Source of the DNA: a virus
Lineage: Duplodnaviria > Caudoviricetes
Reading direction: 5' to 3' (one strand)
DNA length: 60,546 nt
IMG/VR virus record: IMGVR_UViG_3300030101_000172
Span: 1 to 60,546 of that record
Below are positions 17,029 to 38,478 of the stretch, in pieces (the stretch's first letter is position 1; each line of letters opens with the position of its first letter). Position numbers and translations under genes: made by a program. The notes under the pieces are model-generated. The model was given only the letters and a program-made list of their open reading frames with translations, was not told the origin of the DNA and ran no database searches.

Positions 17029-17038
17029 TGTTTACTCC

Positions 17039-22250: not shown

Positions 22251-22836
22251 CTTTTAATCCAAGTTCCTCTTCTACATTTAAAGATTCACCATCTATAAGC
22301 ACTGCTTCTTCGACTGAATCTTCTACTTTTACTAATTTATTTAACTTATCACGTAATTTTTCTCGTAAATCGTCAGTTGATTGGTGTGTTATAGTCACTT
22401 CTGACTTTTCTGCAAACAAACCAACGTCAGATATCTTACCCAAAAGCTCCAAAGCACGTATTCGTACCTTGGGATCAGGGTTTTCAGTCTCTAACAATAA
22501 CTTGTTAGTCACTAAATGCCGTACATGGACAGCACTTTTTACAACAGACTGTCCAAATTCTTTTAATATACTATCAGTTAATACCAAAGATGCAGGTGTA
22601 AGTGCAGCCATTTTATTATTTGTGGCTTTCTTTGAGGTTTTATCAGGATTCTCTGCATACGCCAACGTAAGTTTAGCTGCAATATCCTTGTCTTCTGCAT
22701 TTGGATTTAAGTCAAGACCGTGCTTTGACAGCTCTTCTGCTGTATTTTTTGAGGCTTCTGCACGAGCTTTTAAATCCATCTCTGGTAAACTCGGTTTCAA
22801 TTCCACGCCCATCTCAGGTTCTGCGGTTATGGTCAT
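22243..22836 (-). CDS. Putative terminase small subunit
   Basis: First gene of the late arm, with RIRALELLGKISDVGLF. Start placed at ATG 22836; the ORF is open to 22890. Confidence 0.55.
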   Translation of the reverse strand: MTITAEPEMGVELKPSLPEMDLKARAEASKNTAEELSKHGLDLNPNAEDKDIAAKLTLAYAENPDKTSKKATNNKMAALTPASLVLTDSILKEFGQSVVKSAVHVRHLVTNKLLLETENPDPKVRIRALELLGKISDVGLFAEKSEVTITHQSTDDLREKLRDKLNKLVKVEDSVEEAVLIDGESLNVEEELGLKDE

Positions 22837-22977
22837 GTTGATTAGTATATACACAAAAAATTTTTTTACGCAAGTAGTTTGGGACTCCAAAGGGGGGGTC
22901 TCCTATTTTGAGCAAAACTGAAAATGTTTGTGGAAATTAGACATACATACGTGCGTACACGACAATATATACAAGTC

Positions 22978-22998
22978 GGGTATGGGGGTAGGGTGGGG
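22978..22998 (+). other. G-quadruplex-forming motif in the divergent intergenic region
   Basis: GGG-tat-GGGGG-ta-GGG-t-GGGG. Confidence 0.55.
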
Positions 22999-23041
22999 TA
23001 ATTATATAGTAATTTCAAGTAGCATTAAGTATTATAATAAA

Positions 23042-23060
23042 TGTTAGTGTATCACTAACA
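23042..23060. promoter_or_regulatory. 19-bp palindrome, copy 1
   Basis: TGTTAGTG-TAT-CACTAACA. Confidence 0.8.
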
Positions 23061-23191
23061 AAAAAACATAATAAAAAGTTATTATTTACAAAGTTACTAT
23101 ATCAAACTTAATAAAAATGTGTATTACTATAATCATCAGCAAGACAATACTGTCTTTTAAAATTCGCTGGTACAATAAAAGGAGTTTAGCA

Positions 23192-23722
23192 ATGGCTAAA
23201 TCTATTAAATTTACTGCTGAGGTCGGTAATAAAATAACCTCTACTGTTAAATCTGCTCAAGCTGGTGTTAATGCGATCAACTCGCTTATACCTGTCTTAA
23301 TCAAGCACGGTTTCTTATCTACAACGTTTCTTAGTCCACATACTAAGAATACGAAAAGCACGGCAACAGTCGAGCAGTTCGATAAGATTAACTATTGTAT
23401 CGTTGCAGGTTTTTCTGCTCCAGTTCAAAAGTTGTTGGAAACACCAACTAAAGGACTGACAGATGCTAAAAAGATCTCTAAGAGATATTGGCAGCAACAG
23501 ATAGGGGCTAGACGTAACGACTTATCCAAAGCTCTTGCCAAGCGAGAGAGCGGAGGTAATGGGGCTGGTGGTAAGCCTCGCACACCTGAACAACGTGTCA
23601 GGGATAACCTTAACGATGTGCTTAAAGTAATCGAGGCTGTCGAGGACGAAAAGCAATTAGTTAAGGGCGAGGCTATCAAGCACCTTGTTAAACAAGCCGT
23701 TGCTTTACTACCTAGCAATTAA
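23192..23722 (+). CDS. Early hypothetical protein (176 aa)
   Basis: AAAGGAG RBS upstream of ATG 23192; the ORF is open from 23117. Confidence 0.75.
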   Translation: MAKSIKFTAEVGNKITSTVKSAQAGVNAINSLIPVLIKHGFLSTTFLSPHTKNTKSTATVEQFDKINYCIVAGFSAPVQKLLETPTKGLTDAKKISKRYWQQQIGARRNDLSKALAKRESGGNGAGGKPRTPEQRVRDNLNDVLKVIEAVEDEKQLVKGEAIKHLVKQAVALLPSN

Positions 23723-23733
23723 ATTTAACTAGC

Positions 23734-23771
23734 GGAGCGGAGGGAGTTACACCTCCCTCCCTCCCTTTATT
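23734..23771 (+). terminator. GC-rich hairpin, possible weak terminator or processing site
   Basis: GGAG(C)GGAGGGAG-ttacac-CTCCCTCCCTCC followed by CTTTATT. Confidence 0.5.
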
Positions 23772-23785
23772 GAAAGGACTATATC

Positions 23786-23992
23786 ATGAGAAAAGACAAT
23801 AAAACTCTTGAGGCAATCAAGAGGCGAGAGGCTAGAAAGTTTGCACAAAATAAGTTTGCTTTCATGCTCCAAGATCAACGACTAGATAACATTCAACGTC
23901 AAGAGAATGATAAGAATGTTAAAAAAATCATGACAAGTAATGACATTGATTTTAAAAAGTTAATGATTAAGAACGGAGTAAAACCAAAATGA
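23786..23992 (+). CDS. Early hypothetical basic protein
   Basis: GAAAGGA RBS, 68 aa. Confidence 0.7.
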   Translation: MRKDNKTLEAIKRREARKFAQNKFAFMLQDQRLDNIQRQENDKNVKKIMTSNDIDFKKLMIKNGVKPK

Positions 23993-24096
23993 AAGCATGC
24001 TTAATTTTCATGGCTGAACTTTTTGCCATATTTGGATTGATGGTTATGATTTACGTCATAGCATCTTTACTAGGTGTCTACTTTGATATGATCTAA
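23989..24096 (+). CDS. 35-aa single-pass membrane peptide
   Basis: ATGA overlap with the previous stop. MKACLIFMAELFAIFGLMVMIYVIASLLGVYFDMI. Followed by a terminator. Confidence 0.6.
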   Translation: MKACLIFMAELFAIFGLMVMIYVIASLLGVYFDMI

Positions 24097-24102
24097 GAAA
24101 TT

Positions 24103-24131
24103 AGCCCTCACTTCGGTGGGGGCTTTTTTTT
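24103..24131 (+). terminator. Intrinsic terminator with a UUCG tetraloop
   Basis: AGCCCTCAC-TTCG-GTGGGGGCT-TTTTTTT. Confidence 0.9.
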
Positions 24132-24220
24132 GTGCCAAAATTATTTGACACCAGTTACACGGGTAGCGTTGAGCATTAGCGATTAGTGTACAGAGTTGTT
24201 GCCATGTGTTTGTGCTATCT

Positions 24221-24239
24221 TGTTAGTGTCCCCCTAACA
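24221..24239. promoter_or_regulatory. 19-bp palindrome, copy 2 (1 mismatch)
   Basis: TGTTAGTG-TCC-CCCTAACA. Confidence 0.7.
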
Positions 24240-24315
24240 AAAAGATGCCAGTTACACGGGTAGCGTTGAGCCATTTAGACACGTGATAACTTGTTATAGT
24301 GTGTGTAGCATAGCG

Positions 24316-24334
24316 TGTTAGTGTATCCCTAACA
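24316..24334. promoter_or_regulatory. 19-bp palindrome, copy 3 (1 mismatch)
   Basis: TGTTAGTG-TAT-CCCTAACA. Confidence 0.7.
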
Positions 24335-24381
24335 AGATAACGAGTCAGTATGAAACCAGTTATGGTAGTAGCGTTGAGCCT

Positions 24382-24745
24382 AATGTTCGGTAATTTTTAT
24401 AATGTTCTGCGAATGTTCGGTGAATGTTCGGTTTTTTTACACAACATCCGTACATTATGTTTTGGTAGCATATAGTGGTGAGTTGTATCGAGCATTAGAG
24501 TTTCTTGCCTATCAGCTTTTGCAGTTTAATGTAGTTTCTTAACAGTTATATATAATGTTCGTTTTTTAAAATATTACTTCGATATGTTAGTGACACACTA
24601 ACACGTTTTGAGAATGTTCTGTAATCGAGAAGGGGTCGTCAGCAGGTTAATAAAATCCCGATCTTGCCGAACATTAGAACATTTCAGAAAAATCAAATAC
24701 TTATTCGTATACTATAAAGAACATTATAGTACATTGCAGAACATT
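24382..24745. repeat. Inverted array of AATGTTC/GAACATT heptamers (iteron-like)
   Basis: AATGTTC at 24382, 24401, 24412, 24423, 24554 and 24613. GAACATT at 24669, 24677, 24719 and 24739, plus GTACATT at 24729. Confidence 0.8.
24585..24603. promoter_or_regulatory. 19-bp palindrome, copy 4
   Basis: TGTTAGTG-ACA-CACTAACA. Confidence 0.8.
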
Positions 24746-24822
24746 ACGTTATATGGTACAATATACTACGACAGCCCACGGGTGGAGGTAATAAACCATA
24801 GAATAACACGTTTACACATTAC

Positions 24823-24851
24823 TTGACATAGGACACTATTTGTGCTATACT
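24823..24851 (+). promoter_or_regulatory. Sigma70-type early promoter
   Basis: TTGACA-17 bp-TATACT, with TG at the extended -10 position. Confidence 0.8.
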
Positions 24852-24860
24852 ATATAGATA

Positions 24861-25058
24861 ATGGAAATAGAACTGGAGGATTACATGGATACCAAAAAAG
24901 TCAAGCGAGAATACAAGAGATTACCTAAGAACACCCAATCACATTGGGAGTGGCGAGGTACTGGGTTTGTACAAGTATTCACTATCAAAGGCAATCGATA
25001 CGTGAAACATTACACACCCGATAATGTTAGTGCAACACTAACAAATAACAACAACTAA
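24861..25058 (+). CDS. Early hypothetical protein
   Basis: First ORF after the promoter. An alternative start at ATG 24885 has a GGAGG RBS. Confidence 0.65.
   Translation: MEIELEDYMDTKKVKREYKRLPKNTQSHWEWRGTGFVQVFTIKGNRYVKHYTPDNVSATLTNNNN
25025..25043. promoter_or_regulatory. 19-bp palindrome, copy 5
   Basis: TGTTAGTG-CAA-CACTAACA. Confidence 0.8.
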
Positions 25059-25078
25059 ACAAATAGAAAGGAACTACT

Positions 25079-26005
25079 ATGACTACAAATATACACAAGC
25101 TACCAAGCACCGATAATGTTAGTGATACACTAACAGAATCAGCACCGTCAATATCTTCATCGGCAATGCTAGTCGAGTTATCGATCTCTACGTGGACTGG
25201 TCGTAAGCTAGACAAGCAGGCATCACAAGTTGTTACCACAACTAACAACGCATCAAGTGGTGTCGCCAATGTACACAAGAAGTTACTCGGTGACTGTGCA
25301 GAGTTGGACATAATACAGAAGTTTGTCGGCAATGTTCGCAACGAACATTATGCCATGACAATGCCATGGTCAGACACTGGCATCCGACTGTTACCAACTG
25401 CACAGTACTTCAAGTACCACAGGGTAATGACGGACTTTGCCAACTCGCACAAAGAACTTATCACAAAGTTTCTCAATGCTTATGCCAATCGTGTCGCAGA
25501 TGCACAAGACAAACTAGGTGACTTGTTCAGACGTATGGACTACCCAAGTCCCGATCAGATAGCGAGTAAGTTCAACTTCAATATCTCATACATACCACTG
25601 CCCGAAGTCGGTGACTTTCGTATCGATATCGGCAACGAGCAGAAAGAGGTATTGCAGAAAAGCTACACCGATTACTATTCGTCTCAACTTAGTAATGCAA
25701 TGAATGACGTATGGACACGTTTGCACAAGGTACTTATCAATATGTCCGAACGCCTTGACTATGCAGACAAGGAGACGAAGAAAATATTTCGTGACACACT
25801 TGTTACGAATGTTGTTGATATTGTCGAACTGCTATCGGTTTGCAATGTCACCAAAGATAGTAGAATGGAGTCTATGCGAGTTAGCCTAGACAATGCCTTA
25901 CGTGGTGTCACACCCGATGCCTTACGTGAAGACGAGTTTCTACGTGCTGAGACCAAGCAAGCGATCGATGATGCCATCAAAGCATTACCATCACTTGATA
26001 TATAA
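25079..26005 (+). CDS. DUF3150-like helical protein
   Basis: LVELSISTWTGRKLD...MPWSDTGIRLLP...DYPS...KFNF. AGAAAGGA RBS. Adjacent to the AAA/VWA pair. Confidence 0.6.
   Translation: MTTNIHKLPSTDNVSDTLTESAPSISSSAMLVELSISTWTGRKLDKQASQVVTTTNNASSGVANVHKKLLGDCAELDIIQKFVGNVRNEHYAMTMPWSDTGIRLLPTAQYFKYHRVMTDFANSHKELITKFLNAYANRVADAQDKLGDLFRRMDYPSPDQIASKFNFNISYIPLPEVGDFRIDIGNEQKEVLQKSYTDYYSSQLSNAMNDVWTRLHKVLINMSERLDYADKETKKIFRDTLVTNVVDIVELLSVCNVTKDSRMESMRVSLDNALRGVTPDALREDEFLRAETKQAIDDAIKALPSLDI
25117..25135. promoter_or_regulatory. 19-bp palindrome, copy 6 (inside a CDS)
   Basis: TGTTAGTG-ATA-CACTAACA. Confidence 0.8.
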
Positions 26006-26017
26006 TTTAACAATAAC

Positions 26018-26036
26018 AGTTAGTGTCACACTAACA
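26018..26036. promoter_or_regulatory. 19-bp palindrome, copy 7, abutting the RBS
   Basis: AGTTAGTG-TCA-CACTAACA followed by GAAAGGA. Confidence 0.8.
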
Positions 26037-26049
26037 GAAAGGAACTATC

Positions 26050-27147
26050 ATGACTAACAATTCAGCAGTGCAGATGTATGCACAATCAATCGATCAAGTA
26101 ACCAATGCTATTAAGCAAGGTGGTCACTTACGAACTGTCCTAGTGCAAGGTCACATGGGTACGGGTAAATCTTCTATCTTGTCTAACTTGGCAAAAGAAC
26201 TTACCACACATACACCATGCTACTTTGATTGCACGACCAAAGACTTGGGTGACATTACGATACCAAAGCTAAACATGTTAGACGGCTCGGACTACGTTGC
26301 CTTTGCTACTAACGAAGAACTTGGTGTCCATCTCAACAAGCCTATCATTCTAATGATTGATGAGTATGGCAAGTCCAATCCATCGGTCAAGAATGCAATG
26401 CTACGATTGATGCTCGAACGTAAGATTGGTGGCTACACTTTGCACAAAGACAGTATCGTGTTTGCTACGACCAACTTGGGTGCAGAGGGTGTAGGTGACT
26501 TGTTACCACCACATTCACGTAATCGTATCACTATCGTTACCATGAAGAAACCTACCAACACAGAGTGGATAGAGTGGGGCATCAACAATGGTATCGACCC
26601 TACGTTGCTTGGTTGGTGTAAGGATAATCCACAGTTGTTTCATTCTTTCGAGGATGTCAAGAACCCCGAAGACAACGTGTATATCTACCACCCCAAGGCA
26701 CAGAGATCATCGTTCTTTACACCACGTTCTGCCGAGGCTTGCAGTGACTGGCTCAAATCCAGGGAACACCTCGATGACCACACACTAACGAGTTTACTCA
26801 TGGGTACTATTGGTGAGCGTGGAGCTATGGACTTGATGGCATTTGTCAAACTGGCAGACCAACTGCCTACACTTGAGAGTATCAAGAAAGAGCCTAAGAC
26901 TGCCAAGATACCTACGAGTGCAAGTGCTGTGTGCATGGTGGTTTACCGAACACTGGCATCAATAGAACGAGACTGGGTCAACGCTTGGATGGACTACCTT
27001 GTCAGACTAGACAAAGAGGCACAAGGCATGTTCGCCAATGGTGTACGTGTTCCCAAGTATGCCAAGCAGACACTTGTTATGACAAACAAGAAGTTCACAG
27101 ACTGGGCAGTGCAGAACAACTACATGTTCGCATCAGATAAGAAGTAA
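26050..27147 (+). CDS. MoxR-like AAA+ ATPase
   Basis: Walker A GHMGTGKS, Walker B LMIDE, sensor ATTN and putative arginine finger RNR. Confidence 0.85.
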   Translation: MTNNSAVQMYAQSIDQVTNAIKQGGHLRTVLVQGHMGTGKSSILSNLAKELTTHTPCYFDCTTKDLGDITIPKLNMLDGSDYVAFATNEELGVHLNKPIILMIDEYGKSNPSVKNAMLRLMLERKIGGYTLHKDSIVFATTNLGAEGVGDLLPPHSRNRITIVTMKKPTNTEWIEWGINNGIDPTLLGWCKDNPQLFHSFEDVKNPEDNVYIYHPKAQRSSFFTPRSAEACSDWLKSREHLDDHTLTSLLMGTIGERGAMDLMAFVKLADQLPTLESIKKEPKTAKIPTSASAVCMVVYRTLASIERDWVNAWMDYLVRLDKEAQGMFANGVRVPKYAKQTLVMTNKKFTDWAVQNNYMFASDKK

Positions 27148-27154
27148 CCAAAAA

Positions 27155-27173
27155 CGTTAGTGTAACACTAACA
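27155..27173. promoter_or_regulatory. 19-bp palindrome, copy 8, abutting the RBS
   Basis: CGTTAGTG-TAA-CACTAACA followed by GAAAGGAG. Confidence 0.8.
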
Positions 27174-27186
27174 GAAAGGAGTAACT

Positions 27187-28431
27187 ATGTTAAGCATAGG
27201 AAAAGAACTTACCACTGAGCAACGATTGTCCAAGGCAGTCGTTGACATCATGGGTAATCCAAAGTATGTCGCACTTGCAGGCATACTCATGATTGGCGAG
27301 AGGACAGTCAGCGATGGCGTACCAACTGCCTGCACCGATGGTGTCAATGAGATATATGGTAGGGCATTTACAGATAGTATCCCCGATGCACAACTACGTG
27401 GTGTGGTGTTGCACGAGAACTATCACAAGTTGTACAGACACCTTATCACATGGCGACACTTGTACGAGGAAGATGCAGAACTTGCCAATCGTGCATGTGA
27501 CTATGTTATCAATCTCAAGATTTACGATGACAACAAGCATGACAACTTTGCAGTTCTACCACCAATGGTTTGTCTTGACGAGCAGTTCCGAGATATGGAC
27601 ACGGCACAAGTGTTCAATATTCTCAAGAAGAAATATCGTGGTAAGCAACCACAACCCGATGGTCAACAACCGAACGGTGGATCTGGTAATGGTCAACCAA
27701 CACAAGGCGACTCGTTACCACAAGGTTTCGATCAACATGACTGGGAAGGTGCTGAGTCAATGAGTGAGCAAGACAAACGAGAACTTGCCAAGGACATTGA
27801 CGAGGCTATTCGACAAGGTGCATTGATTGCAGGCAAGATGGGTAGTGGTGGCGATCGTGACCTTGACGAACTGCTCAAACCACAGATCGATTGGCGAGAG
27901 GTGTTACGAGAGTTCATCACGTCCACATGTGCAGGCAGTGACTACTCTACGTGGCAACGACCTAACAGACGATTCGTATCTATCGGTGCATATATGCCGA
28001 GTGGTATATCGGAGAAAGTGGGGGAACTCGTTATCGCTATCGACACAAGTGGTTCGATCGGTCAACTAGAACTCACTGCTTTTTTATCCGAGGTACAATC
28101 GATCTGCGATACTGTGTCACCCGATAAGGTACGACTACTCTATTGGGACACACAAATCTGTCAAGACGAGAAGTACGAGATGCACGAGATCGATACCTTG
28201 GTCGAGTCCACCAAGCCACAAGGTGGTGGTGGCACTATGGTCGAGTGTGTACCCGATCACATAACGAGTGAGGGTATCAAACCTCAAGCATGTATCGTGC
28301 TGACCGATGGCTATCTAGGTGGCAGTTGGGGTTCGTGGTCTTGTCCAGTGCTATGGTGTATCATGGACAACGAGCAAGCCAATCCGACTGTCGGTAAAAC
28401 TGTTCACATAAAAGGAAGGAGTATATTATGA
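27187..28431 (+). CDS. Metallopeptidase-like + VWA domain protein (DUF2201-like)
   Basis: TACTDG, HExxH (LHENYH), a Gln/Gly linker, MIDAS motif IDTSGSI, GGGGT and LTDGY. Confidence 0.85.
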   Translation: MLSIGKELTTEQRLSKAVVDIMGNPKYVALAGILMIGERTVSDGVPTACTDGVNEIYGRAFTDSIPDAQLRGVVLHENYHKLYRHLITWRHLYEEDAELANRACDYVINLKIYDDNKHDNFAVLPPMVCLDEQFRDMDTAQVFNILKKKYRGKQPQPDGQQPNGGSGNGQPTQGDSLPQGFDQHDWEGAESMSEQDKRELAKDIDEAIRQGALIAGKMGSGGDRDLDELLKPQIDWREVLREFITSTCAGSDYSTWQRPNRRFVSIGAYMPSGISEKVGELVIAIDTSGSIGQLELTAFLSEVQSICDTVSPDKVRLLYWDTQICQDEKYEMHEIDTLVESTKPQGGGGTMVECVPDHITSEGIKPQACIVLTDGYLGGSWGSWSCPVLWCIMDNEQANPTVGKTVHIKGRSIL

Positions 28432-28622
28432 CACGTTATCAGAACAGCCAAATGATAGAGGTAGAGGAAGAGTTCTACGGCTATCTAAACAACGATGGTA
28501 TGACCAACGAGCAAGCCATCGTTAAGATCAAAGAGAATCATGGAGAACATTGGGAAGAATATATCCGTGATGTAATAGCAAGAGAAGTAACAACAATTAA
28601 CAACATAAAGGAGAAGTTCTAA
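28428..28622 (+). CDS. Hypothetical protein
   Basis: AAGGAG RBS, coupled to neighbours on both sides. Confidence 0.65.
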   Translation: MTRYQNSQMIEVEEEFYGYLNNDGMTNEQAIVKIKENHGEHWEEYIRDVIAREVTTINNIKEKF

Positions 28623-29779
28623 TGTACGGAGTATCACAGTATGGCATGTCTAGGTTTGGTCTAAACTGCTTTGAGCAGGTGGAGGCTTGTTACAACAATA
28701 CCAAACCAATCATCAGTAAAAATCAAACGTTGCAACACGATATACGACCTATCGGTGACAGAGGTAGAAAGCATGAGCGTATCGCTAAAGTTTCCGATAC
28801 TTGTTACATGTTACTCAATGGCGAGTTAGGTGACAATATGACATGGTATTACAAGTATGAGGATAACCACCAACTCCATACTATCCAAGATGTTAGTGCA
28901 ACACTAACATTTGCACCAGTAGTGTGGACTAGGCATGATGGCTACGACACGATACGTATTCGTAATGGGTCGGGTCACTATGCTCACAACTCTAGGTACT
29001 CGTTCTTATCAAGATGTTTACCTAGTGATATGCACGCTATCATTGGCGATGGTAAGCAGTACGTAGTCTATGAGGGTGTGAGGTATCTCTTACCCAAGAG
29101 TATGTGGTTTCCAAACAACTACTACAATACTCAAAATGGTTTGAAGAAAGATGACGAGCATTACCTAGTGTTTAGGAGAGATCATGCAGATAATCTCAGT
29201 GATACCAAGTTCAAACTTACTGGTAACAAGTTTACGTGGCATGCCAAACGTTATGGTGTGGATGTGGCAACTAAGAACAAGTACAAGTCACAGATCAACG
29301 AACTGTGGGACTACATGTGTACAGTTGCACCTATGTTCAACAATATCTTTGGTGGCAGGGACAGAGGTAGCAGTGGTAACTATTACCAAGAACAATGGCA
29401 AACACGACAACTCAAGTACAAAGCTAAACGTGAGGCACTCAACGAGGGTCGTGAGGAAGTGCAGAACTATGTGGAGAATGTTCTTAACATACCACAAGAG
29501 AGAGTTCACTACATGCGTGATAGTCAGATATACCAAGACTCGCCATGGAAACATGCTCATTTCCCAGTGCCTTTGATAGAGCAGATACTGGCTGATGACC
29601 AACACCCCATGCGTCTTAACTTGGTAAGAGATATTATCAATGACATGGAAGACATAGTGGACTGTCAAGACAAGCAAGAGGCATCGAAGATACGTTCGCA
29701 GTACAATCGATGGTTTAACAAGCACATGGGTTTCACAAAACTTGTGGCTGATGAACACATAACAAAGGAGGAAGTGTAA
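28622..29779 (+). CDS. Early hypothetical protein (385 aa)
   Basis: AAAGGAG RBS and TAATG coupling. Confidence 0.8.
   Translation: MYGVSQYGMSRFGLNCFEQVEACYNNTKPIISKNQTLQHDIRPIGDRGRKHERIAKVSDTCYMLLNGELGDNMTWYYKYEDNHQLHTIQDVSATLTFAPVVWTRHDGYDTIRIRNGSGHYAHNSRYSFLSRCLPSDMHAIIGDGKQYVVYEGVRYLLPKSMWFPNNYYNTQNGLKKDDEHYLVFRRDHADNLSDTKFKLTGNKFTWHAKRYGVDVATKNKYKSQINELWDYMCTVAPMFNNIFGGRDRGSSGNYYQEQWQTRQLKYKAKREALNEGREEVQNYVENVLNIPQERVHYMRDSQIYQDSPWKHAHFPVPLIEQILADDQHPMRLNLVRDIINDMEDIVDCQDKQEASKIRSQYNRWFNKHMGFTKLVADEHITKEEV
28891..28909. promoter_or_regulatory. 19-bp palindrome, copy 9 (inside a CDS)
   Basis: TGTTAGTG-CAA-CACTAACA. Confidence 0.8.
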
Positions 29780-30804
29780 TGACTAATAAGATATCGTATT
29801 GGAAAAGATACAAGGACAACTATGCACGAGTGTCTCTTATCAAACCATGGGTCGAGGGAGACCTATCGACAAAACCTGCTGTGTGGAAAACAAACCAAGA
29901 AACTTTAGAACAGTTTGTGCAGCAGTTGAGTAAAGAACTACGTGGTGTTAAGTTTACACGTAGGAGAGATGACTCTTACTGGATATACAGAGATGATAAC
30001 CCATACGTGATGGGTTGGGTAGGGAGAGGTCTTAACTTCCTATCCACCACCACGAGTGATGATTATCTGTTTTGTGTATGTGCTAGGACTATCAACAACT
30101 GGAAGTACAACGATGGTAGTTGGCAACACTATGCCAAGATGTCAACGAAATGGGACAAAGCAATGAAGAATGCTAAAACTTATTTACGTGTGATGTCACC
30201 TCACGACATGGCATACATAAATCAAGATCGCATCGTGCAATCATTGGGTAATATCACTCGACAAGAGGAGAACAAGTTGGGTAATCTTTACAAGTCTTTG
30301 TTCAACTCTGTGCAAGAAAGCTATGACTACATTAGAAAGTTCAAGGCTAATCGTGCCAAGGAACATACTGTGTTACAGTTCATGCACAAGATATACACAG
30401 AGAAACGTGAGTTGTTGGAAGACGATCCCGACTTTCTCAAAACATACGAGGACTTCCTTGCACAAGAGCAACAACTGAGTGAAGCCCTGAAGAAACAACA
30501 CAAGGTGTACCACATACGTGTTTACGAAGATGCTTTCAAAGTTAGGAAGTTTGATGTAACATTTATTGGTAATGCAGAGGGAGGCACACTTGGCACAAGT
30601 CAACCGATAGAGGATATGAGTCTGTCACCCAAGGTGGTGCTTGATGATAGCACGTTACCCGAAGACTTGTTGGGTAAGGTATCTGTGTTAACAATGTTAG
30701 ACGAGGGAGGGTTTGTCGATGAAGTTGGCTACAAAATTGATTCCACGATGTTTTATGTCATCACGGAAAGAGACTTCCACATCTCATCAGATACCACACG
30801 ATAA
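29779..30804 (+). CDS. Early hypothetical protein (341 aa)
   Basis: AAGGAGG RBS. C-terminal LPEDLLGKVSVLTML...VDEVGYK. Confidence 0.8.
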   Translation: MTNKISYWKRYKDNYARVSLIKPWVEGDLSTKPAVWKTNQETLEQFVQQLSKELRGVKFTRRRDDSYWIYRDDNPYVMGWVGRGLNFLSTTTSDDYLFCVCARTINNWKYNDGSWQHYAKMSTKWDKAMKNAKTYLRVMSPHDMAYINQDRIVQSLGNITRQEENKLGNLYKSLFNSVQESYDYIRKFKANRAKEHTVLQFMHKIYTEKRELLEDDPDFLKTYEDFLAQEQQLSEALKKQHKVYHIRVYEDAFKVRKFDVTFIGNAEGGTLGTSQPIEDMSLSPKVVLDDSTLPEDLLGKVSVLTMLDEGGFVDEVGYKIDSTMFYVITERDFHISSDTTR

Positions 30805-31042
30805 CAAGATATATCGTGTTTCAATAGACAATGGTAGCAAATGTGTTAAAATAACACCGATTGGTATCAATGGTATTGACAACCAAGCAGAGGGTTGGTA
30901 TGATTCTGTTGATGTACTACCTAGATGGGTGCAAGAGAAGATGGCATTACTTATGATGTCTGATGCTCAACCACCTATCTACGAAGTGGATGACGTAGGC
31001 AAAAGGATTAACAACGATATCTTTTGGATATATCATCCGTAA
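30755..31042 (+). CDS. Hypothetical protein related to the C-terminus of the upstream gene
   Basis: LPRWVQEKMALLMM...VDDVGKR. The start is uncertain; the ORF is open from 30713. Confidence 0.65.
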   Translation: MSSRKETSTSHQIPHDNKIYRVSIDNGSKCVKITPIGINGIDNQAEGWYDSVDVLPRWVQEKMALLMMSDAQPPIYEVDDVGKRINNDIFWIYHP

Positions 31043-31051
31043 CAATTAAAA

Positions 31052-31070
31052 TGTTAGTGTGGCACTAACA
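31052..31070. promoter_or_regulatory. 19-bp palindrome, copy 10
   Basis: TGTTAGTG-TGG-CACTAACA. Confidence 0.8.
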
Positions 31071-31089
31071 GTTTTGGGAAACCTTAATT

Positions 31090-31108
31090 TGTTAGTGTCG
31101 CACTAACA
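31090..31108. promoter_or_regulatory. 19-bp palindrome, copy 11
   Basis: TGTTAGTG-TCG-CACTAACA. Confidence 0.8.
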
Positions 31109-31278
31109 TTGAAACCAGTTTTTTTGGGAGGTTAAAATGAGACAAACAATAACCAAGAGAATATGCAATTTGATTTTAAAGTATTGTTATAATGATATTT
31201 CTAAAGTGCAACACATAAAATGTTTCTGCGATAAAATTTTAAAAGATAAAGAGACACAATCAGATTGGGAAACAAGTA

Positions 31279-31509
31279 ATGGATAAGCACAGTAGACGAA
31301 GAGCAAGTATAAGAGATTTGCAAAGACGATTAGAAATTAGAAACTCGAAGAGGACACCTAAAGAGTTAGATATGCACGAGAGGTTTGAAGATGACCCAAG
31401 AGCATTGAAAGAAATAGAATATGGTAGAGTGGTGCGAAAGCCTACAACACCTATGAGTGGTGGGTCTACATTAGGCACAGTAGAGTTTGAAAATAAAAAA
31501 TGGTCATGA
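31279..31509 (+). CDS. Hypothetical protein
   Basis: Co-oriented and overlapping the next gene. Confidence 0.55.
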   Translation: MDKHSRRRASIRDLQRRLEIRNSKRTPKELDMHERFEDDPRALKEIEYGRVVRKPTTPMSGGSTLGTVEFENKKWS

Positions 31510-31814
31510 CACCCGAACAGAAAGTAAAGAAGAAAGTTGTGGCACAACTAAAAGAAATGGGTGCATATTACTTTACACCCATGACTGGTGGTTATGGTTA
31601 CAGTGGTGTACCCGACATAGTGGGGTGTTACAAAGGATATTTCTTTGGTATAGAGTGTAAGGCAAAGGGGAGCAACGAGCCTACACCATTACAGCAAAAG
31701 AACTTAGAACAAATACTGGAGCAAGGAGGCTATGCCGTTGTCATACATGGTGAAAACGTAGACAAGGTCAGTATTAAAGATTTAATAGAAACGTATAGGT
31801 TAGGTAAGCAATGA
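31500..31814 (+). CDS. VRR-NUC domain nuclease
   Basis: TPEQKVK...GVPDIVGC...FFGIECKA...PTPLQ PD-(D/E)XK pattern. Confidence 0.88.
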   Translation: MVMTPEQKVKKKVVAQLKEMGAYYFTPMTGGYGYSGVPDIVGCYKGYFFGIECKAKGSNEPTPLQQKNLEQILEQGGYAVVIHGENVDKVSIKDLIETYRLGKQ

Positions 31815-31949
31815 GAGCCTTTATATCCATTGCAGTAGAGGCGATGCTTTTTTTTGATAAGCTCCTTTCTGTCGTGACTCTACCATTGAAGAATGTAAAA
31901 CTAGTCCCCCTTTGCGAACCCAACAATTTTGTTGGGAGGGGGCATTATT

Positions 31950-32321
31950 ATGAGTAAATATATAAGGAGCAAAAGATTACAGTTTCATAATCATCATGCA
32001 CATGAAGAGAAGATAGATATATCTCCTTACCACGTTGACAATTACAGACATTCTTGCAGGGAGGTCAGCACACGGTGCATACGGTGTGGCACGTTACCAC
32101 GTACCATAGGAGAGGGGATACATTTTTCTTGTAGTTTATTTGTGAAGTGTGACGATTGTTATGCGATCGAGTCGCACTCATACGAAAACCACGAGGGATT
32201 TAATTGGTTGTTTATGGATAATGATTTGAAACAAAAGACTGGAGAGGCAAGATCATTATCATTATTTAACAGATATAAAAAAGAGAAAAAGGAGGAAGAT
32301 GATGACGATAGTATGTATTAA
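31950..32321 (+). CDS. Hypothetical Cys-rich protein
   Basis: CIRC and CDDC pairs. GGAGG upstream of ATG 31950. Confidence 0.55.
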   Translation: MSKYIRSKRLQFHNHHAHEEKIDISPYHVDNYRHSCREVSTRCIRCGTLPRTIGEGIHFSCSLFVKCDDCYAIESHSYENHEGFNWLFMDNDLKQKTGEARSLSLFNRYKKEKKEEDDDDSMY

Positions 32322-32460
32322 TTGTGGAGGTGTTGTCAGACACACCGAAGGTGTAGCAATGTGCGTTTCATGTGGTCAGTACGAACTGCCTTTCGATCAA
32401 ACTATAATAGATGCAGAGGTACAAGAGCAGATGGAAAAAGACGATGCAGAAACCGAATAG
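32302..32460 (+). CDS. 52-aa zinc-ribbon protein
   Basis: AAGGAGG RBS. MTIVCINCGG...MCVSCGQ with an acidic tail. Translated by hand. Confidence 0.65.
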   Translation: MTIVCINCGGVVRHTEGVAMCVSCGQYELPFDQTIIDAEVQEQMEKDDAETE

Positions 32461-32755
32461 AATAGATTTATTAAAAAGAGCCATAGAATATACAGATGGC
32501 GATAGACGCACGGACTATGGCAGTCCTATTGAAAACCACGAACACATTGCGATGATATTTAATTCTATCACAGGTAAACGACTTTCAGCAAAAGACATTG
32601 CGTTGGTGCAGGTAGCAACCAAGTTAGCTAGAATGACATCATCTCCCAAGAAAGACGATCACTATATAGATGCAATGGCTTACATAGGTATAGCTTACGA
32701 ATGCGAAGAAGATATAAGACGTGATGGTGGTCGTTACTTTTACGAGGACAAGTGA
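32444..32755 (+). CDS. DUF6378-like protein
   Basis: GDRRTDYGSPIENHEHIA...KLAR...DDHYIDAMAY. Start placed at ATG 32444. Confidence 0.7.
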   Translation: MQKPNRIDLLKRAIEYTDGDRRTDYGSPIENHEHIAMIFNSITGKRLSAKDIALVQVATKLARMTSSPKKDDHYIDAMAYIGIAYECEEDIRRDGGRYFYEDK

Positions 32756-34596
32756 TGGATTTAATTACGTTAGACTTTGAAACATATTACAGCAAAGATT
32801 ATTCTTTGGGTAAACTCACAACAGAAGAATACATACGTGACCCAAGGTTTGAGGTCATTGGTGTTGGTATAAAACTAAACGATAAAGAAACGGAGTGGGC
32901 GAGTGGAACACATAAACAACTTAGAGAGTACTTACAAACGAACTTCCCCTGGGCAAACGCTATGGTACTTGCTCATAACACTATGTTTGACGGTGCTATT
33001 CTTAATTGGGTCTTTGATATTAGTCCTAGGGTGTATACCGATACTTTGTGTATCTCCCGTGGTTTTCACGGGGTGGAAGATAGCAGTAGTCTCAAGGCGA
33101 TATCTGAAAGATATAATCTCGGAGTTAAAGGCACAGAGGTATTCGAGGCGATCGGCAAGAAGAGAGAGGACTTTACGGAAAGTGAACTAAGTGCTTACGG
33201 AGATTACTGTGTTAATGATGTTGATCTCACATATAAAGCGTTCTTGCACATGGCAAAAGATTTTCCCAAGAGTGAATTAAAGTTAATAGATTTAACTTTG
33301 AGGATGTTTGTAGAGCCAGTATTAGATTTAGATCTAGGTATGCTCGAACAACACCTTGCAGAAACACGTTATGAGAAAGAGTCATTACTACAACAATGTG
33401 CTGTCATGGGTGTGTCAAAAGATGATTTGATGAGCAACCCTAAGTTTGCAGAAGCACTGAGGCGTTTGGGTGTAGAGCCACCTATGAAGATAAGTCCTAC
33501 AACTGGACAAGAAACATTAGCATTGGCTAAGTCTGATGAAGACTTCAAGTCTTTGGCAGAACACGAGAACCCACAAGTAAAAATTTTAGTCAATGCTAGA
33601 CTTGGTAACAAATCAACCTTGGAAGAAACAAGGACACAGAGATTTATTGACATATCAAAGAGAGGATTACTGCCAGTGCCAGTAAGATACTATGCCGCTC
33701 ATACTGGTAGATGGGGTGGTGACGATAAGATAAATTTACAAAACTTACCGAGTCGTGGCAAGAATGGTAAGAAACTAAAACGTAGTATCATTGCACCAAA
33801 GGGTTACACTATCATAGATGCTGACTCATCACAGATAGAGGCTAGAGTCTTGGCTTGGCTTGCAGGGCAAGATGATTTGACCGAGGCATTTGCCAATGGT
33901 GAAGATGTTTATGTAAACATGGCATCAAAGATATATAACAAACCCGAAGAAGAGATAACAAAGGATGAGAGGTTTGTAGGTAAGACAACAATACTGGGTG
34001 CAGGGTATGGCATGGGTGCTTTGAAGTTTCAGTCACAACTACAGACTTTTGGCTTTGACATGCAGATTGAAGAAGCACGGAGGGTCATAGGTGTTTATCG
34101 TGATACTAACTGGAAGATAAACAAGTTATGGCGTGATGCTCAAGACGTGCTACGGGCCCTGTACAACAAAGAACACCCAACACTCTTGGGATGTGGTGAA
34201 GTCTTGGAGACTGTGCCAAAAGAGAATGGTATACGTTTACCATCGGGATTGATGATGAGATACGGAGACTTGGCTTGTGAACAAAGTGATGGCAGAGTTG
34301 AATACAATTACAGAACTAGGAATGGTAGAACTCGTATCTATGGTGGTAAAGTTATAGAGAATGTATGCCAAGCTATAGCTAGATGTATTATAGGTGAGCA
34401 GATGCTCAAGATAAATAAAAGACACCGTGTCGTGTTAACAGTACATGACTCTATAGCTGCATGCGTAAAAGATGAAGAAATCAAAGAGGCACAGACTTAT
34501 GTAGAGGAGTGTATGAAGTGGACACCTGACTGGGCAAGAGGTTTACCGATCAACTGCGAATCGGGTGTGGGTAAATCATACGGAGATTGTGAATGA
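32752..34596 (+). CDS. polA: Family A DNA polymerase with 3'-5' exonuclease domain
   Basis: Exo I LDFET, Exo II AHNTMFD, motif A DSSQIEARVLA, motif B RFVGKTTILGAGYG, motif C TVHDS. Confidence 0.95.
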   Translation: MMDLITLDFETYYSKDYSLGKLTTEEYIRDPRFEVIGVGIKLNDKETEWASGTHKQLREYLQTNFPWANAMVLAHNTMFDGAILNWVFDISPRVYTDTLCISRGFHGVEDSSSLKAISERYNLGVKGTEVFEAIGKKREDFTESELSAYGDYCVNDVDLTYKAFLHMAKDFPKSELKLIDLTLRMFVEPVLDLDLGMLEQHLAETRYEKESLLQQCAVMGVSKDDLMSNPKFAEALRRLGVEPPMKISPTTGQETLALAKSDEDFKSLAEHENPQVKILVNARLGNKSTLEETRTQRFIDISKRGLLPVPVRYYAAHTGRWGGDDKINLQNLPSRGKNGKKLKRSIIAPKGYTIIDADSSQIEARVLAWLAGQDDLTEAFANGEDVYVNMASKIYNKPEEEITKDERFVGKTTILGAGYGMGALKFQSQLQTFGFDMQIEEARRVIGVYRDTNWKINKLWRDAQDVLRALYNKEHPTLLGCGEVLETVPKENGIRLPSGLMMRYGDLACEQSDGRVEYNYRTRNGRTRIYGGKVIENVCQAIARCIIGEQMLKINKRHRVVLTVHDSIAACVKDEEIKEAQTYVEECMKWTPDWARGLPINCESGVGKSYGDCE

Positions 34597-35261
34597 GTAT
34601 ATCTCCTTGGTCGTTCAGTAGAATTAAGTCTTTTGAACAATGTCCCAAACAGTTCTATCATTTGAAGATAGCAAAAGATTACGAAGAAGAGCAGACAAGT
34701 GCCATGACCTACGGCACAGAACTCCATGCTGTGGCAGAGAATTACGTGCAACATGGCGAGGACATACCTAGAAGATTTGGATTTATGAAACCAGTGCTTG
34801 ATTCTCTTAAAAACAAAAAAGGTAAGAAGTATTGTGAAGTTCGTATGGGACTCACACAGGATCTCAGTCCGTGTAGCTTTACGTCTAAACAAGTTTGGTG
34901 GAGAGGTATAGCAGACTTAATAATCATAGATGATACAAAAGCATGGGTCATAGATTACAAGAGTAGCAAGTCTGCAAAGTATGCAGACAAAGGTCAGCTA
35001 GAACTTATGGCTCTATCTGTATTTAGTTACATGCCAAAGATAGACACAATAAATGCAGGATTGTTATTTGTTGTGTGTAAACAACTTGTCAAGCAAGTAT
35101 ACACACGTTCTGGAAGCAACGAGCTTTGGGATAAGTGGATTTCTAATTACAAAAAAATGGAAACTGCGTATAATAAAGATGTTTGGAACGCAAGACCAAG
35201 CGGATTGTGTCGTAGGCATTGTCCAGTAATAGAGTGTATACACAACGGGAGTAACAACTGA
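34593..35261 (+). CDS. PD-(D/E)XK exonuclease (RecB/Cas4-like)
   Basis: SFSRIKSFEQCP, RGIADL, VIDYKS, QLELMA and a C-terminal Cys cluster. Confidence 0.85.
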   Translation: MSISPWSFSRIKSFEQCPKQFYHLKIAKDYEEEQTSAMTYGTELHAVAENYVQHGEDIPRRFGFMKPVLDSLKNKKGKKYCEVRMGLTQDLSPCSFTSKQVWWRGIADLIIIDDTKAWVIDYKSSKSAKYADKGQLELMALSVFSYMPKIDTINAGLLFVVCKQLVKQVYTRSGSNELWDKWISNYKKMETAYNKDVWNARPSGLCRRHCPVIECIHNGSNN

Positions 35262-35512
35262 TGGCTTATACAAAAACAAAAAGACCTTACAAAAAAGAAT
35301 ACGAACAACAAAAGAAACGAGGAGAACATCCGAATCGCATGGAGCGTCAGAAAGCTAGACGTGCATTGGATAAAAAAGGTGTTAGCAGAAAAGGAAAAGA
35401 TGTCAGTCACAAGAAAATGTTAAGTAAAGGTGGCAGTAATAAAGATGGTTATTTTTTAGAAAGTCCATCGAAAAACAGAAGTAGAAACGGAAAAAAGAAA
35501 AAAAAGGCTTGA
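35261..35512 (+). CDS. Small HNH-like endonuclease
   Basis: KDVSHKKMLSKGGSN...SPSKNRSRN. Confidence 0.65.
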   Translation: MAYTKTKRPYKKEYEQQKKRGEHPNRMERQKARRALDKKGVSRKGKDVSHKKMLSKGGSNKDGYFLESPSKNRSRNGKKKKKA

Positions 35513-35580
35513 TTTAAAGCCCGTACAGTAGGGGTAACGATACCCCCGTGTGTGATTGTACCTAGAAAAAGGAGTGAAAT

Positions 35581-36981: not shown

Positions 36982-37002
36982 GCTATCTCTAGTAACTATA
37001 TA
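36974..37002 (+). promoter_or_regulatory. Possible sigma70-type promoter
   Basis: TTGACT-17 bp-TATATA. The -10 box is imperfect. Confidence 0.4.
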
Positions 37003-37033
37003 TAAAGTATTAATAGATAAACGGAGAATGTAA

Positions 37034-37713: not shown

Positions 37714-37723
37714 GAGAGTGCAA

Positions 37724-38389: not shown

Positions 38390-38400
38390 TCCCTCAATAA

Positions 38401-38458: not shown

Positions 38459-38478
38459 GCTTAACTTTATGGTTTGTC

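Follow-up and report, generated by a model that had tools for sequence, protein, structure and literature searches.

What keeps several short restriction-type words out of some 10 kb of a phage genome that tolerates them elsewhere? The window analysed here, 60,546 nt in length, is the whole 60.5 kb genome of a marine podovirus. An initial annotation, made by eye, had noted that CCGC/GCGG, GGCC, CCWGA/TCWGG and GCWGC are absent or rare between about 23.7 and 34.5 kb, and had read this as avoidance of host restriction in the arm that enters the cell first.

Missing words in the early arm

The gaps could be located exactly (Table 1). They are flanked by CCGC/GCGG sites at 23737 and 33695 (83 sites window-wide), by GGCC sites at 22116 and 34155 (34 sites) and by CCWGA/TCWGG sites at 23598 and 34525 (175 sites); the two CCWGA/TCWGG sites described within the interval are the only ones there. 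CAGGA/TCCTG, a related word, is missing from 22644 to 34857. Two details needed correction: the interval holds two GCWGC sites instead of about one, and CCGT, said to be common, occurs only six times in 24-34 kb. All the words had been described as returning after about 34 kb. The first three do so, at the right-hand sites given above, but GCWGC (101 sites window-wide) does not: the site at 23491 is followed by the two in Table 1 and then by one at 44075. In 34501-41300 no GCWGC site was observed against 5.9 expected (0/300 shuffles as low).

The first rightward gene still carries GCGG, CCTGA, TCAGG, GCAGC and GCTGG and shows no depletion, which sets the start of the zone at about 23.74 kb. 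As in the genome-wide site avoidance of other phages, the whole window lacks CCGG, GCGC and CGCG, and CGNCG and CAGCTG are avoided throughout. The window differs in its positional layer: the position-limited depletion is a second layer over genome-wide site avoidance.

Table 1. Word-poor arcs, genes and hairpins of the window
Feature	Position	Strand	Remarks
CCGC/GCGG-free arc	23738..33694	.	9958 bp; gap z 8.4 vs 150 codon shuffles
GGCC-free arc	22120..34154	.	
CCWGA/TCWGG-poor arc	23603..34524	.	two sites, 27682 and 30486
GCWGC-poor arc	23496..44074	.	two sites, 29919 and 34456; longest arc of the window
Large terminase	20066..21616	-	late side, near strand switch
Divergent spacer, leftward late block (terminase side) / rightward early block	22891..23116	.	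ORF layout; hairpin
Rightward early/replication block, entire	23117..41280	+	exonuclease, helicase, gp2.5-like SSB, primase-helicase
First rightward gene	23117..23722	+	201 aa, basic, pI 10.1; conserved in many relatives
11 hairpin palindromes, (T)GTTAGTG-N3-CACTAAC(A)	23042..31108	+	candidate early/middle promoters or operators
AAA ATPase (N4 gp24-like) and DUF2201 metallopeptidase/VWA protein (N4 gp25-like)	26050..28431	+	
Two conserved proteins, 385 and 341 aa	28622..30804	+	confident models
DNA polymerase A (polA)	32752..34596	+	
2256 aa polyvalent virion-type protein	41476..48246	-	LPD39 domain; C-terminal PLxRFG/'DarB-like' region

Word specificity and codon context

We permuted synonymous codons within genes across 23740-34500 (1000 shuffles), preserving the proteins and the codon usage of each gene. 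The depletion survives this control, which the initial annotation had proposed. CCGC/GCGG was observed once against 12.8 ± 3.1 expected, GGCC once against 9.9 ± 2.8 and CCWGA/TCWGG twice against 23.6 ± 3.8, with none of the 1000 shuffles as low for any of the three. The GCWGC count (2 versus 5.2 expected, 53/1000 as low) is weak by itself within these coordinates. Control words are ordinary: GATC occurs 28 times versus 30.6 expected, CATG 58 versus 50.4, and CAG/CTG 217 versus 221. Low counts in the zone are confined to three of ten NCWGN families, CCWGA (O/E 0.09), CCWGG (0.30) and GCWGC (0.38). The repeated use of CCC-GA for Pro-Asp/Glu was also confirmed: in zone genes proline before Asp or Glu is encoded by CCC in 14 of 15 cases and by CCT in the other, compared with CCC in 12 of 96 cases in other genes, while before other residues zone genes use CCA 47, CCT 25, CCG 8 and CCC 11 times (Fisher 1.8e-9). 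The depletion is word-specific, and it is achieved through context-dependent synonymous codon choice.

Position was assessed with unbiased panels of 903-930 words. In half-overlapping 11 kb scanning windows, the first starting at the strand switch, the numbers of avoided 4/5-mers specific to each scanning window are 5, 2, 0, 0, 0, 1, 0, 1, 0, 0 and 0, so that the depletion is not equally strong elsewhere; GGCC is observed 0 times in the first of them against 11 expected. That first stretch has 6 strongly avoided palindromes, and so does another one, because most of these words are avoided genome-wide. Chance or a compositional artefact might be suspected, since the words were picked by eye after the sequence had been seen and the gap statistic is high in phage N4 as well, where a scan found gaps of z at least 8 in late genes; gap z alone therefore proves little. 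Against it, the depletion persists both in the codon-preserving shuffles and in the unbiased panels, the codon-context test agrees, and the pattern recurs in five other genomes and in 23 loci. We find this explanation hardly credible.

Asymmetric words are absent in both orientations, and the depleted words are for the most part palindromes, which we take to be of the classic Type II-like kind. The proposal that they name the recognition sequences of the hosts is plausible for this reason.

Arcs in diverged relatives

We compared the whole genomes of the window and five relatives (G001-G004 and G006), which are diverged to 62-80% nucleotide identity where alignable. In all six, word-poor arcs begin at the common late/early strand switch and run rightwards over word-specific lengths. 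The arcs of the five relatives span 8-45 kb and involve CCGG, GATC, GCGC and GATCC, plus GCWGC in every one. Examples are CCGG in G002 (24509 to 34405, z 16), GATC in G003 (22565 to 31584, z 18.7), GATCC in G004 (23559 to 47233, z 20.7), CCGG and GCGC in G001 (18994 to 64445, z 31, and 22060 to 47038) and GCWGC in G006 (0 to 16498, z 30.7, with 178 sites in the genome). Among arcs with z of at least 6, 25 of 73 start within -1.5 to +2 kb of the switch, against 5.6% expected; for palindromic arcs the figure is 7 of 30 (P 0.001). In five genomes, 24 of the 39 hits of avoided words specific to one scanning window lie in the first 11 kb after the switch (window 5/9, G001 9/14, G002 3/4, G003 6/8, G004 1/4), a word being scored once for each overlapping scanning window in which it passes. 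Over 23 loci, depletion affects 31 palindromic words in the zone and 2 in the late flank, and the number of avoided words falls stepwise with distance in G001 (7, 4, 3, 2, 2, 1) and G003 (7, 5, 3, 2, 2). A contiguous segment free of recognition-type words that are tolerated elsewhere, beyond what composition and coding account for, is thus present in the window and replicated in its relatives. A local depletion that is selective, position-specific and polar is strongly supported; to this extent, given the six-genome arcs and the undepleted late flank, the initial reading is supported in part.

The early arm could instead be an exchangeable cassette whose avoidance profile comes from other or wider restriction systems and is unrelated to DNA entry. 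In low-GC members, zone genes (25079-30804) have a GC3 of 0.45-0.50 and many late genes one of 0.12-0.20, and the zone also has the higher CpG O/E; AT-rich words are missing from the zone too, and late regions have arcs of their own (TCGA from 56626 to 7950 in the window, CGWCG from 60709 to 25443 in G001). However, the even-GC genomes G002-G004 and G006 have the same arcs, different words have arcs that end at different places, some of them outrunning the block, and the stepwise fall in G001 and G003 also speaks against a module. Against the L036 lineage, divergence stays alike across both zone borders (late flank 76%, zone 71-80%, beyond it 73%), and no jump occurs at either border against this lineage or L003. 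Neither a mosaic break nor a composition artefact was found in the zone by codon shuffles and by divergence from these two, and we judge a mosaic origin quite unlikely.

The overlap of the zone with a palindrome array, noted at the outset, is real, and the zone also coincides with the rightward transcription block. This would suit a constraint on a gene class, in which expression, through RNA structure, RNase or regulator sites, or spurious promoters, disfavours the words in early and middle genes. The loss of both orientations and the preponderance of palindromes point instead to recognition of double-stranded DNA. Moreover, the word sets differ among close relatives that have common genes and hairpin types, and arcs end inside genes or run past the rightward gene block (GCWGC to 44075 in the window, GATCC to 47233 in G004, CCGG to 64445 in G001), so that order of entry fits better than gene class. 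We consider such a constraint very improbable.

The GCWGC arc occurs in all six genomes despite GC contents of 38-55%, a range that implies varied hosts. This universality would be expected if an early phage nuclease attacked host DNA at words such as GCWGC, so that the phage DNA then present had to lack them while later DNA was shielded or still outside. A small nuclease-like protein is encoded in the zone at 31500-31814, and an exonuclease gene lies after polA. Yet the other words (GATC, CCGG, GCGC, GATCC, CCGC) vary by genome, as host systems would predict, GCWGC is not depleted in loci L044 and L057, and no sequence-specific endonuclease family was recognised. Staged entry or shielding would still be required, since later DNA carries sites. 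Self-avoidance of this kind appears unlikely.

Predicted genome ends and order of entry

We favour the explanation that selection keeps the early arm free of restriction-type words, with a fixed leading end near 23 kb and polar, staged entry, and hold it to be reasonably probable. One end of the virion DNA would be fixed, inside the 22.9-23.7 kb spacer or immediately to its right. The leading end is predicted to lie around the divergent spacer, where the first hairpin palindrome is also located (23042-23060), and the trailing end close to the large terminase gene. As the first rightward gene is undepleted, either the end lies to its right or the DNA is shielded over its first few hundred bases. 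Entry would proceed rightwards from the spacer end, slowly or in stages: the early genes would come first, then polA, the remaining replication block and the virion-protein genes, and finally the genes for head and terminase. A protector made or active early, perhaps some early protein or the co-injected polyvalent protein, would neutralise the restriction systems of the host, each with its own typical delay. The distance beyond which sites are tolerated would then depend on the word, being roughly 10-11 kb in the case of CCGC, GGCC and CCWGA and roughly 20 kb in that of GCWGC.

The shorter arcs of the window end within the 3' half of polA (33695, 34155, 34455 and 34525) or just after it (34857). 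Arc ends in or just after polA occur in all six genomes, and many arcs of the five relatives end there. The right border thus lies inside a gene, with no intergenic signal, which counts against the leading-end reading, as does the fact that contig ends lie at similar distances on either side, upstream and downstream, of the ATPase gene. Logan contigs from four public runs bridge 22.9-23.1 kb, although contigs cannot show read starts. The one positive hint of a physical end there is that two of seven near-complete contigs (G001 and G006) have both ends in the homologous switch spacer, those of G006 sharing a direct overlap of 111-113 nt. The classification of all seven near-complete records as linear without end repeats counts against a fixed end, and the breaks of four of the seven in the hypervariable region of the genome (57-4 kb) count against a fixed end at the switch.

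Candidate protective functions and hairpins

Searches with PHROGs, Pfam and PADLOC recognised no anti-restriction gene, DNA mimic or DNA methyltransferase, and no DNA methyltransferase family was found in five genomes. The sole acidic, DNA-mimic-like candidate is a 64 aa protein (pI 4.7). The first rightward gene has no match in the same three collections, and the models of the 385 and 341 aa proteins match no solved fold. The 341 aa protein has an RPOL_N match (E 0.0093) that fails the cut-off, and profile comparisons with PDB and fold searches gave nothing; no RNA polymerase family reached the threshold in a search for a phage single-subunit enzyme. The 2256 aa polyvalent protein is a candidate protector in cis, to judge from its domains. 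Its gene is syntenic with the N4 virion RNA polymerase gene, and no RNA polymerase similarity and no methylase or helicase domain were detected in it. A 1529 aa protein checked for virion RNA polymerase gave no informative match. The 2256 aa protein resembles the co-injected P1 DarB-type anti-restriction and polyvalent proteins in its LPD39 domain and in a C-terminal region in common with proteins annotated DarB-like/PLxRFG, and differs from them in lacking a detected methylase or helicase domain.

The hairpins have stems of 7-8 bp and loops of 3 nt and are placed before genes, most of them 4-67 nt upstream of start codons and followed by a GAAAGGA-type ribosome-binding site. Relatives have arrays in the same place with lineage-specific stems. 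The array, which covers the first 8 kb, probably marks transcription units expressed during the first entry stage.

Comparison with known phages

The polar arc pattern of the six genomes matches what the literature describes for the DNA of T5, T7 and Murciavirus that enters first (PMC12455610). In T5 the first-entering 8% is without EcoRI sites, which are tolerated elsewhere, and protection of the rest is put down to early functions, according to two reports (PMC12455610; bioRxiv 10.1101/866236). On that description, the likeness lies in a first-entering segment free of sites that the remaining genome tolerates. T5, however, is a siphovirus that has a long terminal repeat and depends on A1/A2 for second-step transfer; it has no homology to the window phage, whose lineage has many words and nested arcs of up to 45 kb. 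No T5-like long terminal direct repeat was found: the window record is classed as linear without end repeats, and G006 has only the short end overlap given above.

For T7 and Murciavirus (Autographiviridae), the same article describes a motif that decides restriction sensitivity when it lies in the early injected region and is harmless elsewhere, and proposes as the cause an early anti-restriction product made before entry is complete (PMC12455610). That case, as presented there, is an experimental demonstration with a single Type I motif. In ours the evidence comes from sequence only, the words are mostly short and Type II-like, and the 60 kb podovirus lineage is unrelated. Unlike T7, the window phage has no recognisable Ocr or phage RNA polymerase.

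In N4, the left early end with its hairpin promoters enters first and transcription completes entry (PMC4496689). The layout of the window resembles that of N4 (Schitoviridae), with hairpin-type palindromes at the early end, small early genes, the gp24-like ATPase and gp25-like VWA pair of N4-like phages and rightward replication genes, then a giant virion protein gene and late genes running leftwards, with the terminase at the far end. The ATPase/VWA pair are the best-conserved zone genes, with 74-100% identity for the ATPase in the 80 loci kept among 390 matches. By tblastn, however, matches to N4 are limited to the VWA protein (26%) and part of polA; no similarity to vRNAP or RNAPII was found, and no window protein matched the N4 gp15/gp16 region. 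N4 has no restriction-word arcs from its left end.

A further, tentative possibility, which we think rather doubtful, is that the nested arcs record multi-stage, transcription-coupled internalisation, in which hairpin promoters and the injected polyvalent protein would replace an N4-type virion polymerase and the length of each arc would mark the moment at which one host system was neutralised. If true, the leading end, the direction of entry and its stages, the first ending in polA, could be read from sequence alone, as could the restriction recognition words of the hosts of phages that have never been cultured. This reading describes the podovirus lineage itself as globally spread and uncultured.

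Word depletion in the early arm

The window is a complete IMG/VR virus record of 60,546 bp, classed as linear with a completeness estimate of 98%, and its genes lie in three strand blocks (Table). No tRNA genes were found in it. The nearest terminases are those of Pelagibacter phages HTVC027P/HTVC023P (~46%), and HTVC023P-type pelagiphages were rejected as relatives: the terminase is the sole common item and the layout differs. The sections of PMC9599517 on these phages describe circularised assemblies and do not treat the present question. A megablast search of the word-depleted zone against cultured phages returned zero matches. Among the matches listed, the genome or its close kin occurs in 20 public runs, marine and estuarine, that belong to 8 studies. 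A single 2 kb contig in a Flavobacteriales MAG, at 60% identity, was too weak a lead to point to a host.

Table. Gene blocks of the window, and word-free or word-poor arcs in the window and its relatives (start to end, in each record's own coordinates)
Genome	Feature	Coordinates	Strand	Remarks
Window	Leftward late block	1-22,890	-	Portal, large terminase, two more genes
Window	Large terminase	20066-21616	-	Within leftward late block
Window	Rightward block	23,117-41,280	+	In order: small genes, 308 aa protein, AAA ATPase, DUF2201 metallopeptidase/VWA, two uncharacterised proteins, small nuclease, DNA polymerase A, exonuclease, helicase, gp2.5-like SSB, primase-helicase
Window	Second leftward block	41,476-60,405	-	2256 aa polyvalent protein, 1529 aa protein, virion proteins
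Window	2256 aa polyvalent protein	41476-48246	-	LPD39 domain
G001	CCGC arc	24134 to 36931		
G001	GCGC arc	22060 to 47038		
G001	CCGG arc	18994 to 64445		
G002	CCGG arc	24509 to 34405		
G002	GCWGC arc	24512 to 32850		
G003	GATC arc	22565 to 31584		
G003	GGWCC arc	22313 to 38185		
G004	GCWGC arc	22691 to 34867		
G004	GATCC arc	23559 to 47233		
G006	GCWGC-free	first 16,498 bases		178 sites genome-wide
G006	GATCC-free	first 25,275 bases		
Window	Arc ends at/after polA	33695, 34155, 34455, 34525, 34857		
G001	Arc ends at/after polA	34289, 35352		
G002	Arc ends at/after polA	32413, 32850		
G003	Arc ends at/after polA	33610, 34724		
G004	Arc ends at/after polA	33780, 34863, 34867		
G006	Arc ends at/after polA	14186, 14903		

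Several short words, presumably targets of Type II restriction enzymes, are depleted in the early arm. All coordinates in the initial annotation held on recount: CCGC/GCGG has no sites from 23737 to 33695, GGCC none from 22116 to 34155, and CCWGA/TCWGG (W is A or T) occurs between 23598 and 34525 at 27682 and 30486 only. Two accompanying remarks needed correction. CCGT is uncommon within the zone, and not all words return after ~34 kb: GCWGC sites lie at 23491, 29919 and 34456, and the next is at 44075. The first rightward gene (23117-23722) retains GCGG, CCTGA, TCAGG, GCAGC and GCTGG, so that the zone begins at ~23.74 kb.

Synonymous codons were permuted inside each gene, leaving proteins and per-gene codon usage unchanged. 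None of 1000 such shuffles had as few sites in 23740-34500 as observed for CCGC/GCGG (1 against 12.8 expected), GGCC (1 against 9.9) or CCWGA/TCWGG (2 against 23.6); the depletion of these words thus persists after control for amino acids and codon usage. GCWGC is weak by itself in this interval (2 against 5.2 expected, 53 of 1000 shuffles as low), and has no sites in 34501-41300 (5.9 expected, 0 of 300 shuffles as low). The control words GATC, CATG, TCGA and CAG/CTG are close to the shuffle expectation.

The avoidance is also visible in codon context. Ahead of Asp or Glu, proline is encoded by CCC in the zone genes, as had been noticed (CCC 14, CCT 1), against CCA 47, CCT 25, CCG 8 and CCC 11 ahead of other residues in the same genes (Fisher 1.8e-9) and CCT 49, CCA 35 and CCC 12 for Pro-Asp/Glu outside the zone genes (Fisher 6e-10). 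Only CCWGA, CCWGG and GCWGC are low in the zone among the ten NCWGN families, their neighbours being at or above expectation, which indicates that the target is the word and not CAG/CTG or composition.

Every symmetrised 4- and 5-mer was counted in half-overlapping windows of 11 kb, and a word was called window-specific if at least 8 sites were expected, O/E was at most 0.15, 0 of 120 shuffles were as low, and the rest of the genome was not depleted. The first scan window from the strand switch (the spacer 22891-23116 between the leftward late and rightward early blocks) holds five such words (GGCC, CAGGA, CCAGA, GAAGC, GGCCA), and the subsequent ones hold 2, 0, 0, 0, 1, 0, 1, 0, 0 and 0; the depletion is therefore local rather than equally strong elsewhere. 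Beside it lies a layer of genome-wide avoidance. CCGG, GCGC and CGCG have zero occurrences in the entire 60.5 kb, segments with 10-17 expected sites lack CGNCG and CAGCTG, GGWCC has one site in 1-22900 and none in 41476-60546 (9-10 expected per segment), and AAGCTT is absent from 41476-60546. Because of this layer, the number of strongly avoided palindromes in the first scan window, six, is not unique in this genome.

Arcs in related genomes

Using the ATPase gene as query, we found 390 related stretches in IMG/VR and kept 80 loci; five more near-complete genomes were taken whole (G001-G004, 62-68 kb; G006, 65.9 kb; GC 0.39-0.55). All five have the gene order and three strand blocks of the window, and nucleotide identity to it, where alignable, is only 62-80% in G001-G004. 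In every one, arcs of the genome's own words begin at the homologous strand switch and extend rightwards (Table); measured against 150 codon shuffles, their z values lie between 6 and 31. Among the arcs with z of at least 6 in five genomes, nested words included, 25 of 73 start in the interval from -1.5 to +2 kb around the switch, where 5.6% would be expected; for palindromic arcs the count is 7 of 30 (binomial P 0.001). Window-specific words in the first scan window number 9 in G001, 3 in G002, 6 in G003 and 1 in G004, with 0-2 in each of the others.

A comparison of the zone with the late flank was possible in 24 loci with 10 kb upstream, one of which was left out for the shortness of its zone. 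Over the other 23 loci, depleted palindromic words (48 tested, counted per locus) number 31 in the zone and 2 in the late flank, and the loci carrying them 14 and 2, respectively. All six whole genomes show GCWGC depletion, but the two related loci L044 and L057 do not. Gap z values of at least 8 also occur in N4 late genes, so the argument is built on co-location, replication and codon context, not on any single z. Chance is excluded by the codon shuffles, the locality scan, the relatives and the codon context alike. Nor does an expression-level constraint on early genes fit, the avoided words being palindromic and strand-symmetric.

Some avoided words are confined to one genome and others recur. 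G003 alone nearly lacks GATC from 22.6 to ~46 kb, and a GATCC gap of 24-25 kb is common to G004 and G006. Avoidance of CCAGA/TCTGG is seen in the window, G001 and G004, and that of AGCTC in G002, G003 and G004. The overlap of avoided-word sets hints at host restriction specificities shared among relatives.

The left edges of arcs coincide and the right edges vary by word. Numerous arcs stop within or shortly past polA in six of six genomes (Table); longer ones, some reaching beyond the rightward block, include GCWGC in the window (to 44075), GATCC in G004 and CCGG in G001. Strongly avoided palindromes drop stepwise away from the switch (7, 4, 3, 2, 2, 1 in G001; 7, 5, 3, 2, 2 in G003), and the least depleted region is always left of it, in the terminase and head genes. 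Late regions have long CpG-word gaps of their own, for TCGA in the window (56626-60546 and 1-7950) and CGWCG in G001 (60709 to 25443), and these words are abundant in the early arm.

The early arm could alternatively be a mosaic cassette with a different host history, which fits both the existence of some late-region arcs and the odd composition of the zone in the low-GC members. There GC3 reaches 0.45-0.50 in the large genes that come first in the early arm (25079-30804), against 0.12-0.20 or, over most late genes, 0.12-0.22, and AT-rich words are also missing. However, divergence from the lineage of the related locus L036 is similar over both borders (76%, 71-80%, 73%), genomes of even GC carry the same arcs, and the arcs are nested rather than bounded by cassette borders. 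The early genes at 25079-30804 also have a far higher CpG O/E than the late genes, whose values at 1-9 kb are 0.12-0.5. G001 shows the same early GC bump, and higher-GC relatives are without it.

Proposed staged entry from a fixed end

A cut at any position is lethal to the phage. The position of a site therefore matters only if sites differ in the time or fact of their exposure. Arcs that share a sharp origin, run in one direction and differ in length by word would be expected if DNA entry were polar, slow or staged, and from a fixed end; each host restriction system would be disarmed after its own delay, giving each word its own arc length. The initial annotation had proposed that this segment enters first; the local depletion on which that proposal was built is confirmed and extends to the relatives, and the terminus and the protector are still putative steps. 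As judged from sequence, staged entry is the best available interpretation. An early phage-made nuclease could account for the avoidance of GCWGC in six of six genomes, but it leaves the genome-specific words unexplained and would still require staged entry or shielding.

The phenomenon is of a known kind. That restriction falls hardest on first-injected DNA is already established for T5 and T7, and the account in PMC12455610 describes the same mechanism, recently shown, in Murciavirus, where the position of a motif in the first-injected region decides restriction. The principle has so far been seen in these few cultured phages; what is new is an unusually rich, group-wide case in uncultured marine phages, with many words and nested arcs of common origin, in a lineage as broad as its IMG/VR matches and marine runs indicate. 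If the staged-entry reading is true, arc analysis would reveal, from sequence alone, the polarity with which uncultured phages package and inject their DNA, name candidate restriction specificities of their hosts, and show where to seek new anti-restriction genes, here among the small genes and two proteins matching no known fold at the arc start.

Hairpin arrays and candidate protectors

The zone overlaps a palindrome array, as had been pointed out: 11 palindromes of the form (T)GTTAGTG-N3-CACTAAC(A) lie at 23042-31108, most of them 4-67 nt upstream of start codons and directly 5' of a GAAAGGA-type ribosome-binding site. The five relatives have arrays at the homologous place, and in these six genomes the arrays hold 4-11 hairpins with a 7-8 bp stem and a 2-5 nt loop. 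The stems are lineage-specific yet palindromic (GTTAGTG in the window; TGTAGTG, GTTAGGG/TTAGGGA, GTTATAC). Lying before early and middle genes, the arrays are candidate phage-specific promoters or operators. The non-coding stretch 24130-24600 contains two of the hairpin palindromes, a 24 nt direct repeat in three copies (24151, 24248, 24356) and three AATGTTCGGT-like units at 24382-24439, and may be an origin or control region.

The layout is like that of N4: small early genes, an ATPase/VWA pair resembling N4 gp24/gp25, replication genes, a facing giant virion gene, and the terminase at the far end. The early left end of N4 enters first and has hairpin promoters, and transcription completes entry, as described in the N4 account of PMC4496689. 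Sequence similarity, however, is minimal, and in N4, taken as a positive control, no arcs begin at the left end; the likeness lies in design and does not make this an N4-like phage. PHROGs, Pfam, the PDB (by sequence and by profile), Foldseek and the ESM Atlas were searched for an RNA polymerase of the virion or a second one, and none was found. The 2256 aa protein gene occupies the position of the N4 virion RNA polymerase gene, and its product has a C-terminal region common to 'DarB-like/PLxRFG' giant proteins, carried by podoviruses of ~60 kb such as Klebsiella LASTA/SopranoGao, those of Pseudomonas (Skulduggery) and Sinorhizobium (PBC5) included.

Searches with PHROGs, Pfam and PADLOC brought up neither an anti-restriction gene nor a DNA mimic, and five genomes gave no DNA methyltransferase family; PADLOC gave zero matches for ten early proteins. 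Candidates for a protector are found among the small early genes, in the first gene with its basic product, in the co-injected polyvalent protein and in two conserved proteins whose models match no solved structure. The last two adjoin each other (28622-29779, 385 aa; 29779-30804, 341 aa) and are conserved in the lineage at just 20-36% identity. Their AlphaFold models are confident (pLDDT 79 and 85), and comparison with the PDB by Foldseek and with the ESM Atlas revealed neither an RNA polymerase nor any named fold. The 341 aa model, the sole one compared with BFVD, matched only uncharacterised proteins of uncultured phages.

Genome ends

Logan contigs of four runs, placed on 14000-33500, span 22.9-23.1 kb, as they also would with a terminal repeat or concatemers, contigs being without read starts. 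A depth of 16.8 against ~9 for 20173-24888 in one run was not used because the other three runs did not repeat it. Contig-end distances from the ATPase gene look equal upstream and downstream.

In G001 and G006 both contig ends fall within the switch spacer, at distances of 58 and ~100 nt upstream of the first hairpin. In G006 (loci L101-L104) the first and last 111-113 nt are identical in direct orientation, and the contig breaks off halfway through the first hairpin; this overlap may be either a short repeat at the termini or a circular overlap left by the assembler. The seven near-complete records are without exception classed as linear; one breaks inside the zone and four in the region from 57 to 4 kb. 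These four breaks in or near 1-8000 suggest that this part of the window is probably hypervariable and fragments assemblies. Its low-GC late genes, probably encoding tail or receptor-binding functions, are without nucleotide similarity to G002-G004.
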